A DNA stretch of 31,250 bases from Abditibacteriaceae bacterium. GTDB taxonomy: Bacteria; Armatimonadota; Abditibacteriia; Abditibacteriales; Abditibacteriaceae. Positions within the stretch are counted from its first letter, which is position 1. Each line of letters opens with the position of its first letter. Positions 6,839 through 13,676 of this stretch are shown in pieces. The notes under the pieces were generated by a model. It was given only the letters and a program-made list of their open reading frames with translations, had not been told where the DNA came from and searched no databases. Made by a program: the position numbers and the translations under genes. The DNA lies in contig JANPJS010000314.1 of NCBI GenBank assembly GCA_031425655.1, forward strand, positions 1 through 31,250. Reading direction: 5' to 3'.

Positions 6839-6877
6839 AATTGGCCCGGTTTGCGGATGCAAACCGGGCCGATTTTT
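6839..6877 (+). terminator. Rho-independent terminator
   Basis: GGCCCGGTTTGC-GGAT-GCAAACCGGGCC is a perfect 12-bp stem followed by GATTTTT, about 20 nt after the stop codon. Confidence 0.8.
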
Positions 6878-6914
6878 GTCTATCGCGCGAGAAAAACGCG
6901 CCCTTAAATTACTT

Positions 6915-8165
6915 GTGAAACGAAATTCCGGCCTCACTTTCATCTTTATCACTCTGCTGATTGACATTCTCGGCATTGGGCTGCTGATTCCGATTTTGCC
7001 GGAGTTCATCGCGCAGCTCACGCAGCAAAGCCTCAGCGCCTCGGCGCGCGAATACGGCTTGTTGCTTTCGCTTTACGGCGCGATGCAGTTTCTTTTCGCG
7101 CCGCTTCTCGGCACTCTCAGCGACCAATATGGACGGCGCCCGGTTTTGCTGTTGTCCATGCTTTTCGCCGGATTCGATTACGTGCTGATGGCCCTTGCGC
7201 CGAGCATGGTCTGGCTTTATATAGGCCGCATTTTATCGGGCATTACCGGCGCCAGTTTTACCGCTGCCAACGCTTATATCGCCGATGTTAGCCCGCCCGA
7301 AGAGCGTTCGCAGAACTTCGGCTTAATCGGCGCCGCATTCGGCATCGGTTTCATCATCGGCCCGGCGCTGGGCGGTTTTTTGGGGCAATATGGGCATCGC
7401 GTGCCGTTCTGGGCCGCTGCGGTTTTGTGCTTTGCCAACTTTCTTTACGGCTGGTTTATTCTGCCCGAATCGCTGAAACCGGAAAATCGGCGGCGTTTTG
7501 AGTGGAAACACGCCAATCCGCTTGGCGCGCTGAAAATGCTGGGAAAATATCCCGTGGTGTGGGGTCTCACCGGCTCGCTGACGGCCAGCAATCTGGCGAT
7601 GAACTGCATCAACAGCACCTGGGTGCTGTTCACGATGATTCGCTTTGGCTGGGATGCGCGCCAAACCGGGTTCTCGTTGGCCGCATTCGGCTGCGTGGCG
7701 CTGGTTTATCAACTGTGGCTGGCGCGTATTCTCATCCCGCTGTGGGGCGAACGCCGCACCATGACAATCGGCCTGGCGACGGCAGCCCTTGAATTTGCGG
7801 CTTACGCTTTTTCCACGCAAGGCTGGATGATTTACGCGATCATGCTCATCGGCGGCGTGGGATTGTTGGGCGGGCAAGCGGTGCAAGGCTTACTTTCGCA
7901 GCAAGTCGGCGAAGACGAGCAGGGCACCTTGCAAGGCGCTTTGTCGAGTTTGCAAAGCTTGACCGGCATCGCCGGCCCGATCATCGCCACGGCTTTATTC
8001 AGCTATTTCACGCGCGAAAATGCCCCGATTCAGATTCCCGGCATCGCGTTTCTACTCGCGGCGGCGCTGAACGCTCTGGCGCTCGTTATAGCCTTGCGCG
8101 TGCTGGCGAAACTGCCGCCGCCTGCCGTGGAAATCAAAAGCGGCGGGGCATTGTCCGGCGAGTAA
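6915..8165 (+). CDS. TetA-like MFS efflux transporter (DHA1/TCR-Tet family)
   Basis: Motif [25 protein letters not shown], motif [30 protein letters not shown], about 12 hydrophobic segments. Start taken at GTG 6915, downstream of the terminator. Substrate cannot be determined. Confidence 0.88.
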
Positions 8166-8217
8166 GTTAGCCCTCAGAATTTCGCATTTGCTCGTATACG
8201 CTATCATTGCAAAAGCG

Positions 8218-8236
8218 GCATAATACAGAGTTCGGC
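8218..8236 (+). other. Putative integron attI simple site (crossover G|TT at 8230/8231)
   Basis: GCATAAT-ACAGA-GTTCGGC has the spacing of attI1 (CCCTAAA-ACAAA-GTTAGGC). GTTCGGCAGCTTG is the exact reverse complement of CAAGCTGCCGAAC (8978-8990) at the end of cassette 1. No attC hairpin lies upstream. Confidence 0.65.
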
Positions 8237-8270
8237 AGCTTGCGCGCGGCTTGCGCTGTGTGCCAAAACT

Positions 8271-8969
8271 ATGTGTATGGTTTCAGCAAACGTTCTTCAA
8301 AGAGTTTTCAGATTAAAATATGGGCAAAGCTGCGGCACTTGCTTCTCGGTTGATATTGATAACAGAGAATACATCGTCACTGCAAAACACGTTATTGAAG
8401 GATTCTCAGGTTCAGGAATAGTAGAAATCTTCCACGACAATAAATGGGTTCCAATCGCAGCACAGTTGGTCGGCGCTGGTGCAGGCGAAGTAGATGTAGC
8501 AGTTTTAAGTTTGGCACAACAATTAGCTCCAAACTGGCATCTCCCGCTGCCAGCAGACGATAAAGACATATTCTTTGGTCAAGACGTTTACTTCTTGGGA
8601 TTCCCCTACCACTTATTCACCGATATTGGACAAAACAACCGTAATTTTCCAATTCCCTTCATCAAAAAGGCTATTGTCTCAAGCATTTCCAAAGGTCAGC
8701 ATACAGCGCAACTTTACTACTTAGACGGCCATAACAATCCGGGCTTTTCAGGTGGCCCAATTGTGTTCACTATACCCGGCAGCCGTGACTTTCGCGTTGC
8801 CGCTGTCGTTTCTGGCTATCGTTTTGAGCAGGAATCAATTTATGCAGGAGAACAACAAACACCTTTGTCTTACCGATACAATACGGGATTAATTCTTGGT
8901 TATGGAGTTTTTCACGCAGTCGAACTGATTCAAGCCAATCCGATAGGGCTGCCAATGTCGTATTTATAA
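8271..8969 (+). CDS. Trypsin-like (S1) serine protease, cassette 1
   Basis: Catalytic triad motifs VTAKHV, DVAVL, NNPGFSGGP. No signal peptide. Start may be ATG 8277. Confidence 0.85.
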   Translation: MCMVSANVLQRVFRLKYGQSCGTCFSVDIDNREYIVTAKHVIEGFSGSGIVEIFHDNKWVPIAAQLVGAGAGEVDVAVLSLAQQLAPNWHLPLPADDKDIFFGQDVYFLGFPYHLFTDIGQNNRNFPIPFIKKAIVSSISKGQHTAQLYYLDGHNNPGFSGGPIVFTIPGSRDFRVAAVVSGYRFEQESIYAGEQQTPLSYRYNTGLILGYGVFHAVELIQANPIGLPMSYL

Positions 8970-8983
8970 CCAACCAACAAGCT

Positions 8984-9075
8984 GCCGAACAAGGCGCTGC
9001 ACCCGACCGCCTACAGCTTCGCTCGTCGTTCCTCCTCGCTACGCTTCCGGCGGCGGGTGAGCTTGGTCGTTCTGT
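8984..9075 (+). other. attC site 1 (92 bp)
   Basis: R'' GCCGAAC, L'' GCTGCACC with extra-helical G, central imperfect palindrome, L' GGTGAGC, R' GTTCTGT. Confidence 0.92.
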
Positions 9076-9113
9076 CGCGGCGAGCAATGTTCCGAAACCT
9101 GAGACAGAAAAAT

Positions 9114-9135
9114 GGTAAAATAAAAGGCGAAGAGG
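9114..9135 (+). promoter_or_regulatory. Extended -10 promoter and RBS of TA cassette 2
   Basis: TGGTAAAAT (TGn-TAAAAT) followed by AGAGGT shortly before ATG 9142. Confidence 0.5.
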
Positions 9136-9141
9136 TGCAAT

Positions 9142-9357
9142 ATGCAAACGCAGGAATTAATTGTTTCTTCGCCTGATATCTTAGGTGGCACACCCGTTTT
9201 TGTCGGCACCCGCGTTCCGGTCAGGAATCTAACGGATTACATCGAAGCAGGAGACACGCTGGATGAGTTTTTGGATGACTTTCCTTCGGTGTCACGAGAG
9301 CAAGCGGTTGAGTTTTTAGAACAGGCCAAGGAGGCTTTGCTTGCTCAACTCGTCTGA
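9142..9357 (+). CDS. DUF433 family antitoxin (VapB45-like), cassette 2
   Basis: PDILGGTPVFVGTRVPV...LDEFLDDFPSVSREQ is the typical DUF433 pattern. Overlaps the downstream PIN gene. Confidence 0.92.
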   Translation: MQTQELIVSSPDILGGTPVFVGTRVPVRNLTDYIEAGDTLDEFLDDFPSVSREQAVEFLEQAKEALLAQLV

Positions 9358-9691
9358 TTCGCTGCGTGTTCTACTGGATGAATGCTTGCCCAGGAAACTC
9401 AAGCGTGAGTTTTTCAATTGTGATGTGTCCACCGTCCCCGAAATGGGATGGGCCGGCAAAAAGAACGGCGAATTGATGAAAGTGGTTCACGGTCAATTTG
9501 ATGTGTTTGTCACGGCTGACCAGAACTTGCAGTATCAGCAAAACCTGGCTTATGCTGATGTTGGTGTTGTGGTTCTTGTGGCAATCAACAATCGCATCGA
9601 AACGCTTGCGCCGCTCATGCCGCAGGTTAACGACGCACTCAAAAGCATTTTAGCCGGTCAGGTCATCGAAATCGGAGCCGAAACCGACTAA
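9341..9691 (+). CDS. DUF5615 PIN-like toxin (VapC45-like), cassette 2
   Basis: RVLLDECLP, MGWAGKKNGEL, FDVFVTADQNLQYQQNL. Exact start uncertain. Confidence 0.88.
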   Translation: MLNSSDSLRVLLDECLPRKLKREFFNCDVSTVPEMGWAGKKNGELMKVVHGQFDVFVTADQNLQYQQNLAYADVGVVVLVAINNRIETLAPLMPQVNDALKSILAGQVIEIGAETD

Positions 9692-9696
9692 TCGCC

Positions 9697-9791
9697 ACAC
9701 AACAAGGCGCTGCACCCGACTGGCTACAGCTTCTCTCGTGCCTCGCTTCGGTCGCTACGCTTTCGGCGGCGGGTGAGCTTAATCGTTTGAC
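9697..9791 (+). other. attC site 2 (95 bp)
   Basis: ACACAAC-AAGGCGCTGCACCCGAC ... CGGCGGCGGGTGAGCTTAATC-GTTTGAC, closely similar to attC1. Confidence 0.92.
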
Positions 9792-9843
9792 TGGTGCGCG
9801 CCGCTCTCTTGAAATTGCAGCACATTTTGTGTGATCTCACGAT

Positions 9844-10068
9844 ATGAATTATCAGGATTACATTACGATTGAAGCAGACAAGCGTGGTGGCAAACCGTGC
9901 ATTCGCGGGATGCGCATCACCGTCTATGATGTTCTTGACTATCTGGCATCCGATATGACGGAGGAGGAAATTTTAGAAGACTTTCCTGATCTCACACATG
10001 AGGACATTCGGGCTTGTCTTGCTTTCGCGGCTGACCGTGAGCGCAAGTTGTTCGTAGTTGCAGCATGA
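9844..10068 (+). CDS. DUF433 family antitoxin, cassette 3
   Basis: KRGGKPCIRGMRITVYDVLDYLAS...EILEDFPDLT.EDIRACLAFAADRE. ATGA overlap with the toxin gene. Confidence 0.93.
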   Translation: MNYQDYITIEADKRGGKPCIRGMRITVYDVLDYLASDMTEEEILEDFPDLTHEDIRACLAFAADRERKLFVVAA

Positions 10069-10396
10069 AATTTTTGTTTGACCAGAACTTATCATATCGG
10101 TTGGTGCGCCTTTTGGCTGATATTTACCCAGACTGCCAGCACGTTCGCAATGTTGGTTTGAAAGAGGCCCCAGACACACAAGTTTGGGAGTTTGCTCGAA
10201 GCAACGGCTACGCTATTGTCTCCAAAGATTCTGAAGGCATCAACGGAGCCTGTTACTTGGCTTTCCGCCAAAAGTTGTTTGGGTAAGATTAGGCAACTGT
10301 TCAACTAAAGCTGTTGAACAGATTCTGCGCGCCCATTTTGAAGATGTCCAACGATTTGAGGCTGATGAGGCCGCAACTTTCCTTATCCTATTCTGA
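10065..10396 (+). pseudogene. DUF5615 PIN-like toxin, frameshifted near 10233-10238
   Basis: MKFLFDQNLS...IVSKDS continues in the -1 frame as HQRSLLLGFPPKVVWVRLGNCSTKAVEQILRAHFEDVQRFEADEAATFLILF* (TGA 10394-10396). One base is missing where D-F is expected. Confidence 0.85.
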
Positions 10397-10412
10397 AAGT
10401 CACCAACACGCG

Positions 10413-10449
10413 AAATAACAAAGCGCTACACCCGACAGCCCACAGTTCC
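10413..10449 (+). other. Truncated attC site 3 (left arm only)
   Basis: AAATAAC-AAAGCGCTACACCCGACAGCCCACAGTTC matches the left halves of attC1 and attC2. No GGGTGAGC...GTT right arm follows. Confidence 0.75.
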
Positions 10450-10547
10450 GTGTCCAACGTTTCCCTTCTCACAGTTCCCGCCGACGCTGAATACCAAAAA
10501 CCGCATCGCTTCTTTGCTTTGTGTTCTCGCGTGATACAATCCCCTTG

Positions 10548-11264
10548 ATGGAAAATCTCATTCGCGCGCAAGGTTTGGCGCGGCGCTATTCGGTTGGCAA
10601 GCACGAAGTTCGCGCCTTAGACGGCGTTGATCTCGACGTGGCGCGCGGCGAATTCGTGGCTTTGGTTGGGCCGTCGGGTTCGGGAAAGTCTACGCTGCTC
10701 AATCTTATCGGCGGGCTGGATAGGCCCAGTGGCGGCGAAATTCACGTCGCCGACTTGGAATTGGGCAAAGCCAGCGACAACCAACTGGTGCGTTATCGCC
10801 GCGAGCGTATCGGCTTTATTTTTCAGTCGTTCAATTTGCTGGCGATGCGCAGCGCCGTCGAAAACGTCGAAACGCCGCTGATGCTGGCCGAAGTGCGGCC
10901 CAAAGAGCGCCGCCAACGCGCTTTGCAACTTCTCGAATCGGTTGGGCTGGCGCCGCGCGCTCATCATAAGCCGAATGAGCTTTCCGGCGGCGAAATGCAG
11001 CGCGTGGCCGTCGCGCGTTCTTTGGCCAATCGTCCTTTGCTTTTGCTGGCCGATGAGCCGACCGGCAACCTTGATTCCAAAACCGGGAAAGGCATTCTCG
11101 ATTTGTTGCGCGAAGCCGTGGCATCGCAAGGCGTGACCCTTGTTTTGGTGACGCACGATATGCAAGTTGCGGCGCACGCCGACCGCATCGTGCATATGCT
11201 GGATGGCCGCATTCAGCGCATCGAAACGACAGGCGCAACGCGCGAGGAGCAACGTGAACTTTAG
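10548..11264 (+). CDS. ABC transporter ATP-binding protein (LolD/MacB type)
   Basis: Walker A GPSGSGKST, GFIFQSFNL, signature LSGGEMQR, Walker B LLLADEPTGNLD, VTHD. Start at ATG 10548. Confidence 0.95.
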   Translation: MENLIRAQGLARRYSVGKHEVRALDGVDLDVARGEFVALVGPSGSGKSTLLNLIGGLDRPSGGEIHVADLELGKASDNQLVRYRRERIGFIFQSFNLLAMRSAVENVETPLMLAEVRPKERRQRALQLLESVGLAPRAHHKPNELSGGEMQRVAVARSLANRPLLLLADEPTGNLDSKTGKGILDLLREAVASQGVTLVLVTHDMQVAAHADRIVHMLDGRIQRIETTGATREEQREL

Positions 11265-12513
11265 CGATAAAGCGGCTACGGCGTGGTCGAATTTGGGCCG
11301 CCGCAAAGTGCGAACCGCGCTCACTTCGATTGGCGTCATTGTCGGCATTATGACCGTGGTGACGATGGTTTCGCTCGTCAACGGCGTGCAATTGCAAGTG
11401 AAACAGCAGTTCGAGAAAATCGGTTTGGATCGCGTGACGGTGCGGCCTCAGACCGAAGGCAGCGCTTTTAATCCGTTTGATATGGGCGAGCGCACCAAAA
11501 TCATCACGCCCGCCGATGTGCGGCGCTGGCGCGCGTGGCCGCAAGTGAAACAAACCATTCCAGAAATCGAGCTGCCGTGGAGCATCGTCAGCAAATTGGT
11601 CTGGCAAGGCAAAAGCAAGCCGGTTCGCGTGTCGGGAGGCAGTTCGCTGCGTCGCGGGCCATTTTCCGAGCCGCCGGAAGTTTTGGCGGGCACTTTAGAT
11701 TTGCCGGACATGCGCGGCGCGATTGTGCTGAGCAAAGGCGTCTTAAAACGCTTTAAAGTTGATAAATCGAAATACGCTTCGCTCATCGGGCAAAGTGTCG
11801 AAGTGGTGCTGGAAGCGCCGCGCGGCGAAAAGCAAATCTATTCATTTAAAGTCATCGGCGTGTCGTCGGATGGCGCGGCGTCGGTGCAGATTCCAACGCC
11901 CGACCGCCTGGCCATGAAAGCGTGGTGGAACAACGAAGCCGATTCGCTCAAAGCCGACGGCTACGATTCCGTGACGCTGCGCGCCGAAGACGTGACCGGC
12001 GCCAAAGCGATTGTCGAGCGGCTGCGCAAAGAAAAGTTCGAGGTGATGTCCATTGACGCCATTTTAAATGTGGCAAACCGCATTTTCGCGGTCATCACAG
12101 CGATGCTGGCCCTTGTCAGCAGCGTGGCGCTTTTGGTGGCGTGCATCGGCATCGTCAACACGATGATTATGTCCATTTATGAGCGCACGCGCGAAATCGG
12201 CACGCTCAAAGCGATGGGCGCCTCGCGCAGCGACATTCGCCAGATGTTTATGATGGAAGCGGGTTTAATCGGTTTAATTGGCGGCAGCGCCGGTCTGGTT
12301 TTAAGCTGGCTTTTAGGCCGCTTGTTGAACCGCATCGCGCAATGGTTCGCGCAGCACCGCGATTTGCCTTTGCCCGATAATTTGTTCATTATCACGCCGA
12401 TTTTGGCCGTTCAAGCCTTGTTTTTTGCCCTGCTCATCGGCGTTTTAGCCGGTTTATATCCGGCCAACCGCGCCGCGCGCCTCGATCCGCTGATGGCCTT
12501 GCGCCACGAATAA
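11254..12513 (+). CDS. ABC transporter permease (MacB/FtsX family)
   Basis: GTG start after GAGGAG. RTALTSIGVIVG, GIVNTMIMSIYERTREIGTLKAMGA, GLYPANRAARLDP.ALRHE. Confidence 0.93.
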   Translation: MNFSDKAATAWSNLGRRKVRTALTSIGVIVGIMTVVTMVSLVNGVQLQVKQQFEKIGLDRVTVRPQTEGSAFNPFDMGERTKIITPADVRRWRAWPQVKQTIPEIELPWSIVSKLVWQGKSKPVRVSGGSSLRRGPFSEPPEVLAGTLDLPDMRGAIVLSKGVLKRFKVDKSKYASLIGQSVEVVLEAPRGEKQIYSFKVIGVSSDGAASVQIPTPDRLAMKAWWNNEADSLKADGYDSVTLRAEDVTGAKAIVERLRKEKFEVMSIDAILNVANRIFAVITAMLALVSSVALLVACIGIVNTMIMSIYERTREIGTLKAMGASRSDIRQMFMMEAGLIGLIGGSAGLVLSWLLGRLLNRIAQWFAQHRDLPLPDNLFIITPILAVQALFFALLIGVLAGLYPANRAARLDPLMALRHE

Positions 12514-12514
12514 A

Positions 12515-13306
12515 ATGAATCTGCGAACCGTCAACGCGACTCGCTACGTCACGCCTTTGCGCGAAGGCGGCTCTCTGCCGGCTATTGTCGAAGCCGATGA
12601 CGACGGCACTTACGTCTTGAAATTTCGCGGGGCCGGACAAGGCCCCAAAGTCCTCATCGCCGAATTGATAAGCGGCGAAATCGCGCGCGTTCTCGGTTTG
12701 CCGGTGCCCGAAATCGTGTTGATGAACCTCGATCCGGTTTTGGGGCGCAACGAGCCGGATTCTGAAATTCGCCATTTAATCAAAGCCAGCGATGGATTGA
12801 ATCTCGCGCTCGATTATCTGCCCGGCTCGATTACTTTCGATCCTCTGGTGAAAAAACCGGTGTTGGATGTGCCGAATTTGGCCTCGCGCATCGTCTGGTT
12901 GGACGCCTTCACGACTAATGTAGACCGCACAGCGCGCAACACCAATATGCTGGTCTGGCACAAGCAATTGTGGCTAATTGACCACGGCGCGTCGCTGTAT
13001 TTCCACCACAGTTGGGACGATTATTTGGAGCGCAGCCGCACGCCGTTCGGGCAAATTAAAGATCACGTTTTGCTGCCATTTGCCGATGATTTGCAGGCCG
13101 CCGACGCGGCTTTGGCGCCGATTCTGACACGCACATTAATCGAAGAAATCGTTGCGCTCGTTCCCGAAAGCTGGCTTTGCCACGATTCGCCGTTTGCGGA
13201 TGCCGCCGAGCATCGCGCGGCTTATGTGACGTATTTGACGACACGTTTGCAGGAACCGCGAAACTTCGTCGAGGAGGCGCAGCGTGCCCGTTTGCTACAC
13301 GTTTGA
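12515..13306 (+). CDS. HipA-like Ser/Thr kinase (DUF3037-associated type)
   Basis: PLREGGSLP glycine loop, YVLKFRGAG, AELI, catalytic NVDRTARNTN, LIDHG. Confidence 0.85.
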   Translation: MNLRTVNATRYVTPLREGGSLPAIVEADDDGTYVLKFRGAGQGPKVLIAELISGEIARVLGLPVPEIVLMNLDPVLGRNEPDSEIRHLIKASDGLNLALDYLPGSITFDPLVKKPVLDVPNLASRIVWLDAFTTNVDRTARNTNMLVWHKQLWLIDHGASLYFHHSWDDYLERSRTPFGQIKDHVLLPFADDLQAADAALAPILTRTLIEEIVALVPESWLCHDSPFADAAEHRAAYVTYLTTRLQEPRNFVEEAQRARLLHV

Positions 13307-13676
13307 TTACGCCATCATTCGCGTGGTGCCCAGAGTCGAGCGCGAAGAATTTCTCAACGTCGGCGCGGTGCTTTTCTGCCCGACACAGGATTATTTGAAA
13401 GCACGCATCGAGCTTGATCTGCCCCGTTTGGCGGCTTTCGCGCCCAGTTTGGAATTAGCCGCCGTCGAAGCTTATTTGAACACCATTCCGCGCATTTGCG
13501 AAGGCGCCGAGGCCGGGCCTGCGGGCCAAATGACGCAGCGAGAACGATTTCACTGGCTGGTCGCGCCGCGCAGCACGATTATCCAATTTTCGCCGGTTCA
13601 TTCCGGCGTTTGCGGAGATTTGGATTTAGCTTTGAGCCGATTGATTGAAAAAATGGTTCGCGCGCCGCGCTTATGA
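13284..13676 (+). CDS. DUF3037 domain-containing protein
   Basis: FDYAIIRVVPRVEREEFLNVG, RFHWLVAPRSTIIQ.SPVH.G. 23-nt overlap with the kinase gene. Confidence 0.9.
   Translation: MPVCYTFDYAIIRVVPRVEREEFLNVGAVLFCPTQDYLKARIELDLPRLAAFAPSLELAAVEAYLNTIPRICEGAEAGPAGQMTQRERFHWLVAPRSTIIQFSPVHSGVCGDLDLALSRLIEKMVRAPRL

Follow-up and report, generated by a model that had tools for sequence, protein, structure and literature searches.

Integrase-less cassette clusters (CALINs) have been attributed, among other proposed origins, to loss of intI and to cassette integration at secondary sites, and half of them occur in intI-carrying genomes (Cury et al. 2016, PMC4889954). In the accessible text of that study, the functional link between CALINs and integrons is excision of a cassette followed by its reinsertion at the attI of the integron, and attI was sought only by exact match to class 1–3 sites. 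That IntI might act on CALINs in trans has been raised as a possibility (Ghaly 2022; Xanthomonas preprint). As far as the accessible literature goes, it is an open question why integrase-less cassette clusters are so common, most of them having no intI pseudogene, and for the majority of integrons attI has yet to be identified.

One attI-bearing CALIN is already in print. In the case of Shewanella prophage M16-3 (Qi et al. 2023, PMC9892861), a complete integron and an array without integrase are each headed by attI within one genome, and the single extra attI lies within the same 40-kb prophage. Cassettes are also found at chromosomal sites away from intI in the SALINs, where the attachment site, attG, is a short consensus unlike attI (Loot et al., bioRxiv 10.1101/2022.09.11.507474). 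Finally, delta-attI-type cassettes, in which attC is replaced by the last attI bases, are described from inside the arrays of mobile clinical integrons (Gonzales Machuca et al. 2026, PMC12901181).

The window analysed here, a 31,250-nucleotide stretch of DNA, is contig C314 of an Abditibacteriaceae genome (G000; 5.98 Mb in 327 contigs, 97% complete). Like a CALIN as described in PMC4889954, its array has two or more attC sites and lacks a neighbouring intI; unlike the CALINs reported there, it has an attI of its own, as do 12 others in the same genome. It also differs from the Shewanella case, in that the copies here are numerous, sit at unrelated chromosomal loci, have diverged spacers and are spread family-wide. 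A genome-wide network of this kind was not found in print: a search confined largely to the main text of openly accessible articles returned no published account of one integrase serving many attI copies and none of integrons in Abditibacteriaceae.

The array is carried on the plus strand between two sets of host genes. Upstream is an MFS transporter gene (6876..8165; Pfam MFS_1; TetA-like family, NCBIfam NF012174, 346 bits and thus below the cut-off of 475), and downstream are genes for an ABC ATPase and a MacB/FtsX permease (10548..12513), which show no linkage to the MFS gene in the relatives examined. The end of the MFS stop codon (8165) is 64 nt from the crossover G at 8230. A GTT triplet lies right behind the stop codon (8166..8172) and could, speculatively, be the left junction of an inserted unit. 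It is followed by a spacer without a stable hairpin (8173..8214) and by the attI core (8215..8232), which comprises an extended L box (8215–8224), a 5-nt spacer (8225–8229) and the crossover G|TT (8230–8232).

Cassette 1 (8230..9069) encodes a trypsin-like peptidase (ORF 8271–8969) and has a 13-nt end complement (8230–8242 with 8978–8990); its attC1 (8984..9075) is intact, with a core identical at 84/84 positions to an attC on contig C243. PADLOC matches of the trypsin-like ORF were not accepted as a system call, being domain-level only. Cassette 2 (9069..9785) carries a DUF433 ORF (9142–9357) and a PIN/DUF5615-like ORF (9341–9691), which likely form a toxin-antitoxin pair; DUF433-PIN pairs appear in published tables of toxin-antitoxin loci (PMC4963859). 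An 84%-identical copy of this cassette is the first behind another attI-like head, on contig C63. An extended -10-like sequence was spotted by eye at 9113–9121, 20 nt ahead of the antitoxin-like gene; its hexamer is conserved in the C63 copy and has no tool match. Cassette 2 ends in attC2 (9697..9791), complete with two outer-stem mismatches. Cassette 3 (9785..10416) has a DUF433 ORF (9844–10068) and a frameshifted DUF5615/PIN gene, whose first frame ends at the stop at 10286 and whose remainder continues in another frame up to 10396. The array closes with a terminal half attC, the left arm alone (10417..10445). An Rfam scan of 7800–10900 gave only two matches, both at chance level.

Three observations concern the surroundings of the array. 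Downstream of the ABC genes, a HipA_2 and DUF3037 pair (12515–13676) matches the PADLOC candidate defence models PDC-M66A/B and is linked to the MFS gene in G001 and G010 too. The segment 5231–5295 is a member of a different family of dispersed non-coding repeats, which is present many times over in the genome; one copy lies just past the end of intI on C103. The trypsin-like ORF shares its frame with the MFS gene, with a single stop codon between them (8163–8271) and 35 open codons spanning attI.

Both complete sites have the anatomy of attC: R'' ends in AAC, R' begins with GTT, the central spacers are 5 and 6 nt, the L boxes pair, and two extrahelical bases lie on the R'' arm with a 6-bp stem between them. 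In attC1, which runs from AAC at 8988 to GTT at 9071, the L stem (8/7 nt) is paired at 7/7 positions and the outer stem at 7/7 with two unpaired bases at the usual places, and its fold shows both bulges. In attC2 (9701–9787) the L stem is paired at 7/7 and the outer stem at 5/7 positions. The half-site at 10417–10445 resembles a left arm only. The two complete sites and the half-site of the original prediction are thus borne out, and its extra-helical G holds for the top strand, where the additional L-box base is a G; on the recombining bottom strand the extrahelical base is a C (59/66 family sites examined). The first extrahelical base is reported to be usually a G on the bottom strand (Nivina 2016, PMC5027507), and with that wording a bottom-strand C does not rule these sites out of attC. 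Fold energies are not significant for either site (z of -0.77 for attC1 and 0.22 for attC2), and the minimum-energy fold of attC2 differs from the attC fold. Folding energy alone does not single the sites out; the call is made on anatomy together with 71 family matches genome-wide.

Read in reverse complement, the 13-mer at 8230 is identical to 8978–8990, and the 5.98-Mb genome contains it once in either orientation. The original prediction describes this complement for cassette 1; it is exact and unique, and is at the same time a trait of the attC family, in which mostly 8–10 of the 10 bases past GTT are complementary. In the window the complementarity falls with position, at 10, 6 and 1 of 10. 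A positional gradient of cassette-end decay is absent across arrays (14 first-position against 25 later cassettes, p 0.54), and decay in place was rejected for the end mismatch of cassette 2, the same mismatch being present in the C63 copy. The identity of attC sites was likewise rejected as a clock, as another genus has attCs that are 97–98% identical. The right arm is missing in 19/32 terminal attCs against 1/34 internal ones (singletons and weak matches counted), which makes the half-site of the window a typical array end.

The attI-like head of the original prediction was compared with the attI beside the only intact intI of the genome, on contig C103. The two agree at 16/18 bases over 8215–8232, and only four sites in the genome match the C103 attI at 16/18 or better, each of them heading an array. 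The match coincides with the boundary of cassette 1, which was set independently by the 13-mer, and no attC-like hairpin is found there (fold z 0.65–0.77). The head therefore has both homology to the site beside a cognate intI and a junction at G|TT. That it is a decayed attC was rejected on the lack of a hairpin and on the sequence match, which is to attI; that it is a random site was rejected on the 16/18 match to an intI-linked attI exactly at the cassette 1 boundary. With a leave-one-out matrix it ranks first genome-wide, with a score that has 0 occurrences in 10 simulated 12-Mb sets; this matrix is partly circular, its training sites having first been found by resemblance to the window site. 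In an independent repeat, with the matrix retrained on nine intI-linked sites only, the window head ranks 43 of 183,403 GTT positions.

Compared with attI1 of class 1 integrons (PMC12901181), the family attI is alike in its L box, short spacer and G|TT crossover and, in full copies, in having further boxes upstream. It differs in sequence, and its upstream boxes are inverted pairs extending over up to about 130–150 nt. Genomes differ in whether the spacer has 5 or 6 nt, and the window copy is core-only. The heads on C103, C211, C100, C193 and C326 possess the accessory upstream boxes, which in the window copy are missing or out of register, and align without gaps over 67 nt; in this five-copy alignment the three boxes are 70–91% identical and the long spacers 32–49%. 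Boxes kept while spacers have become near random suggest old copies held by selection on binding sites. At the family loci L008–L020, some integrases have next to them a site with a 5-nt spacer from L box to G|TT, and others a site with a 6-nt one.

A 256-nt contig from a second study, about 89% identical, covers the MFS end up to 8226 and keeps the MFS-attI junction. It has 11 differences in 8165–8195 and at most 5 in 8196–8226 (unlisted, and shared with the other end of the piece). Since it is the same piece in two runs of one study, at a depth of 2.2 and with the differences near its ends unlisted, it offers a weak hint that the attI core may be conserved in a diverged relative. This contig also has a stop codon between the MFS gene and the frame of the trypsin-like ORF. 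Two further pieces ending near the head were assigned to the C103 and C193 heads, and contig joints between attC1 and attC2 were excluded, as they could derive from other attC copies.

A search of the genome for integron integrases gave a single TIGR02249 match above the cut-off among the 7 scored, the uninterrupted ORF on C103. The absence of intI beside the array, as originally described, is confirmed to the extent that no remnant is present in the 3 kb upstream; without an adjoining intI the array is not a complete integron. The proposed search for further arrays, made with a family-specific HMM at E up to 0.5, yielded 71 attC-like matches, including 49 full-length ones at E < 1e-4, in 37 clusters on 34 contigs. 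Counting a head where at least 8.8 bits were scored with the retrained matrix at a cassette start, 14/37 clusters are headed, namely C103 and 13 integrase-less ones; the C84 cluster, whose site scoring 10.3 does not lie at a cassette start, was left out. The remaining 23/37 clusters are without a recognisable head, and 7 of them lie within about 1 kb of a contig end. Two oddities were seen among the clusters. On C63 (13780–16700) two weak attI-like heads lie 2.2 kb apart with a short upstream segment in common by eye, the first leading an ORF-less cassette and two unannotated ORFs and the second the copy of cassette 2. On C143 (4714–5195) two attC sites stand in opposite orientation, 360 nt apart.

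The window site is one member of a genome-wide and family-wide set, which the original prediction had missed. An integrase above the cut-off is present in 15/61 genomes, and most intI-linked sites of the family have, by inspection, the same box design. A loose pattern of head plus cassette start gave 135 matches against 43 with a reversed control in 27 family genomes. Forty-two candidate heads without an intact neighbouring intI were hand-picked by eye in 14 related genomes; an attC match lies in the 1.5–2 kb downstream of 32/42 and intI fragments lie near 3/42. In G009 an intI-linked and an orphan site are on one contig, 1.06 Mb apart, so that assembly breaks do not explain the orphan pattern. 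The intI-linked attI of the same genome is the best match for 23/41 orphans and not for 18/41 (9 references, ties included), and homology between paralogues mostly ends 95–160 nt upstream, at the end of the boxes. In G008, G011, G012 and G024 (80–95% complete) heads are present and no intI scores above the cut-off. Two heads of G002, on C277 and C317 (L144, L146), have 159 nt in common and carry the G000-type spacer, not that of the intI-linked site of G002. The G000 integrase resembles integrases from other genera (about 59%) more closely than it does that of the congener G001 (52%), which hints at integrase replacement.

The reading that we favour, with a probability of roughly 60%, is that the window array is a satellite dock which would be loaded and reshuffled in trans by the single C103 integrase. 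IntI would bind the L box and G|TT of the window head and insert circular cassettes there by attI x attC recombination, and older cassettes would be displaced downstream, with the last attC eventually losing its right arm; several of the docks would be former complete integrons with an eroded intI. The original prediction had offered a trans-served dock or a relic of intI loss. Both situations occur in the genome and are not exclusive, and trans use of the window site itself remains inferential.

One sign that such docks can exchange cassettes is an orthologous orphan pair, G014:C33 and G024:C510. The 1.8 kb of upstream flank is 89% and the downstream flank 94% identical and the head is common to both, while the cassettes are unrelated and start at G|TT; in either species a divergent host gene leaves no space for intI. 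The last cassette differs too, though the half-attC and flank are common to both, and since ordinary attI insertion does not explain this, homology recombination may have contributed. A second sign is a delta-attI-type scar in the C193 array, where the R'' flank of a cassette (11/11 complementary to its start) joins the last attI bases directly. Its spacer is that of C193's own head, not that of C103, and is also found in C16; two cassettes have been added ahead of it. This scar fits the expected product of L-box x R'' recombination, as proposed for IntI in PMC12901181. It is like the delta-attI-type cassettes of that report in having attC replaced by the last attI bases; those were described inside arrays, whereas the window site stands at an array head and has the whole extended L box. 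The C193 scar was the one site to pass a strict test; C186, which copies the spacer of its head by eye, failed it. The copy of cassette 2 that comes first behind the C63 head is a further sign of use.

At the window site, signs of turnover were sought and not seen. No population variants were found at the site, and the proposed comparison of the MFS-ABC interval produced no empty or differently loaded allele at the MFS gene among relatives. In relatives, 8 MFS orthologues were inspected, 6 of them with over 1 kb of sequence downstream, and neither a head nor a convincing attC was found behind any. No attC match occurs at 99 further MFS-homologue loci, and no head lies behind the 12 closest. 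Family-wide, the lack of a positional gradient in cassette-end integrity, the four genomes that have heads and no intI above the cut-off, and the orphans that do not best match the linked attI of their own genome also count against use of the docks.

The strongest competing explanation, which we regard as unlikely, is that the heads are inert relics remaining after deletion of intI, with an insertion rate that is no longer meaningful and arrays that decay or lose cassettes. It draws on the frameshifted gene, half attC and core-only attI of the window, on the genomes with heads and no intI, and on the traces of intI at other heads. An intI remnant lies at G000:C211 (aa 4–41, 63–70% identical), with others at G005:C8, G008:C4 and G022:C104 and, by DNA similarity, at G017:C3; the G000:C186 array adjoins the gene next to which intI is found in G001 and G002, and the would-be intI position is taken by an unrelated gene. 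The remnants at five heads and the array at the congeners' intI locus indicate that intI loss produced some of the orphans. Against inertness at large stand the boxes, in register although the spacers are near random, and the G014/G024 dock, with different cassettes and no space for intI. The C193 scar, which repeats the orphan's own spacer, also argues against it, though it is undatable relative to intI loss.

Less probable still is that the boxes are a promoter or regulator site, with cassettes swapped by homologous or homology-assisted recombination at their conserved ends and IntI playing a minor part. The L box does hold a -10-like hexamer, 5–6 nt ahead of the junction, roughly 20 nt are common to cassette starts and roughly 30 nt to attC left arms, and the G014/G024 swap terminates within the left arm of the half-attC. 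On the other hand, the motif is the one that accompanies intI in 9 genomes, with the canonical G|TT at its end, a promoter scan of the plus strand over 8000–10600 returned no site, and the delta-attI scar fits the IntI reaction proposed in PMC12901181.

That the window head is an attG-type site, an ordinary chromosomal GTT resembling attI by chance at which one cassette was put and later ones followed, is very improbable: cassettes are known to be inserted at short GWT sites (bioRxiv 10.1101/2022.09.11.507474), the match at the window site is limited to the core, and no relative examined has attI or attC behind the MFS gene, but attG is described as a 3-base consensus unlike attI, whereas the heads here are attI homologues, the window site agreeing at 16/18 with the resident attI, the only 4 sites at that level all being array heads, and other orphans having 95–160 nt of multi-box sequence in common with paralogues.

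Read-through from the MFS gene, suggested originally as a substitute for Pc, is possible and is not singled out by the data. No terminator was found between the MFS gene and the head, and the upstream gene is co-directional in 32/44 called orphan sites (5 uncalled). The downstream neighbours also turn their 3' ends to the array, in 10/14 arrays (C63 was left out, its match being its own cassette), so the orientation fits simple tolerance of insertion, which confounds read-through and leaves it unsupported as a specific explanation.

As to how the satellite dock came to lie behind the MFS gene, the window dock is, on sequence comparison, a lineage-specific gain: heads are absent behind all the MFS orthologues examined. 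In G001 the MFS gene abuts the HipA_2/DUF3037 pair, and in the window the same pair comes after the array and the ABC genes. The chance is slightly better than even that the copy was gained through a former complete integron whose intI eroded. A more doubtful route is that an attI-bearing fragment was placed by IntI at the GTT behind the MFS stop codon. Among trimers within 12 nt of the upstream stop codon, GTT shows the strongest enrichment (14/33 orphan sites against a background of 16%, taken from this genome only; p 3e-4 before correction, with 4/14 overlapping attI-like boxes), and with the GTT just past the MFS stop this leaves room for integrase-driven seeding of docks.

A broader proposal, which we put forward tentatively and think rather less than evenly probable, is that Abditibacteriaceae have a distributed integron, in which one integrase would serve a dozen or more chromosomal attI docks under selection and would seed new docks by carrying attI-bearing fragments to a GTT just past host stop codons. 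Many bacterial CALINs might then be live acquisition sites, missed as attI is not generically searchable. Should orphan attI copies still be used, such clusters could acquire cassettes as well as donate them, and the integron would be a genome-wide network rather than a single locus. The Abditibacteriaceae provide a direct test set, with one cloneable integrase and more than 10 natural attI variants that range from full multi-box to core-only.
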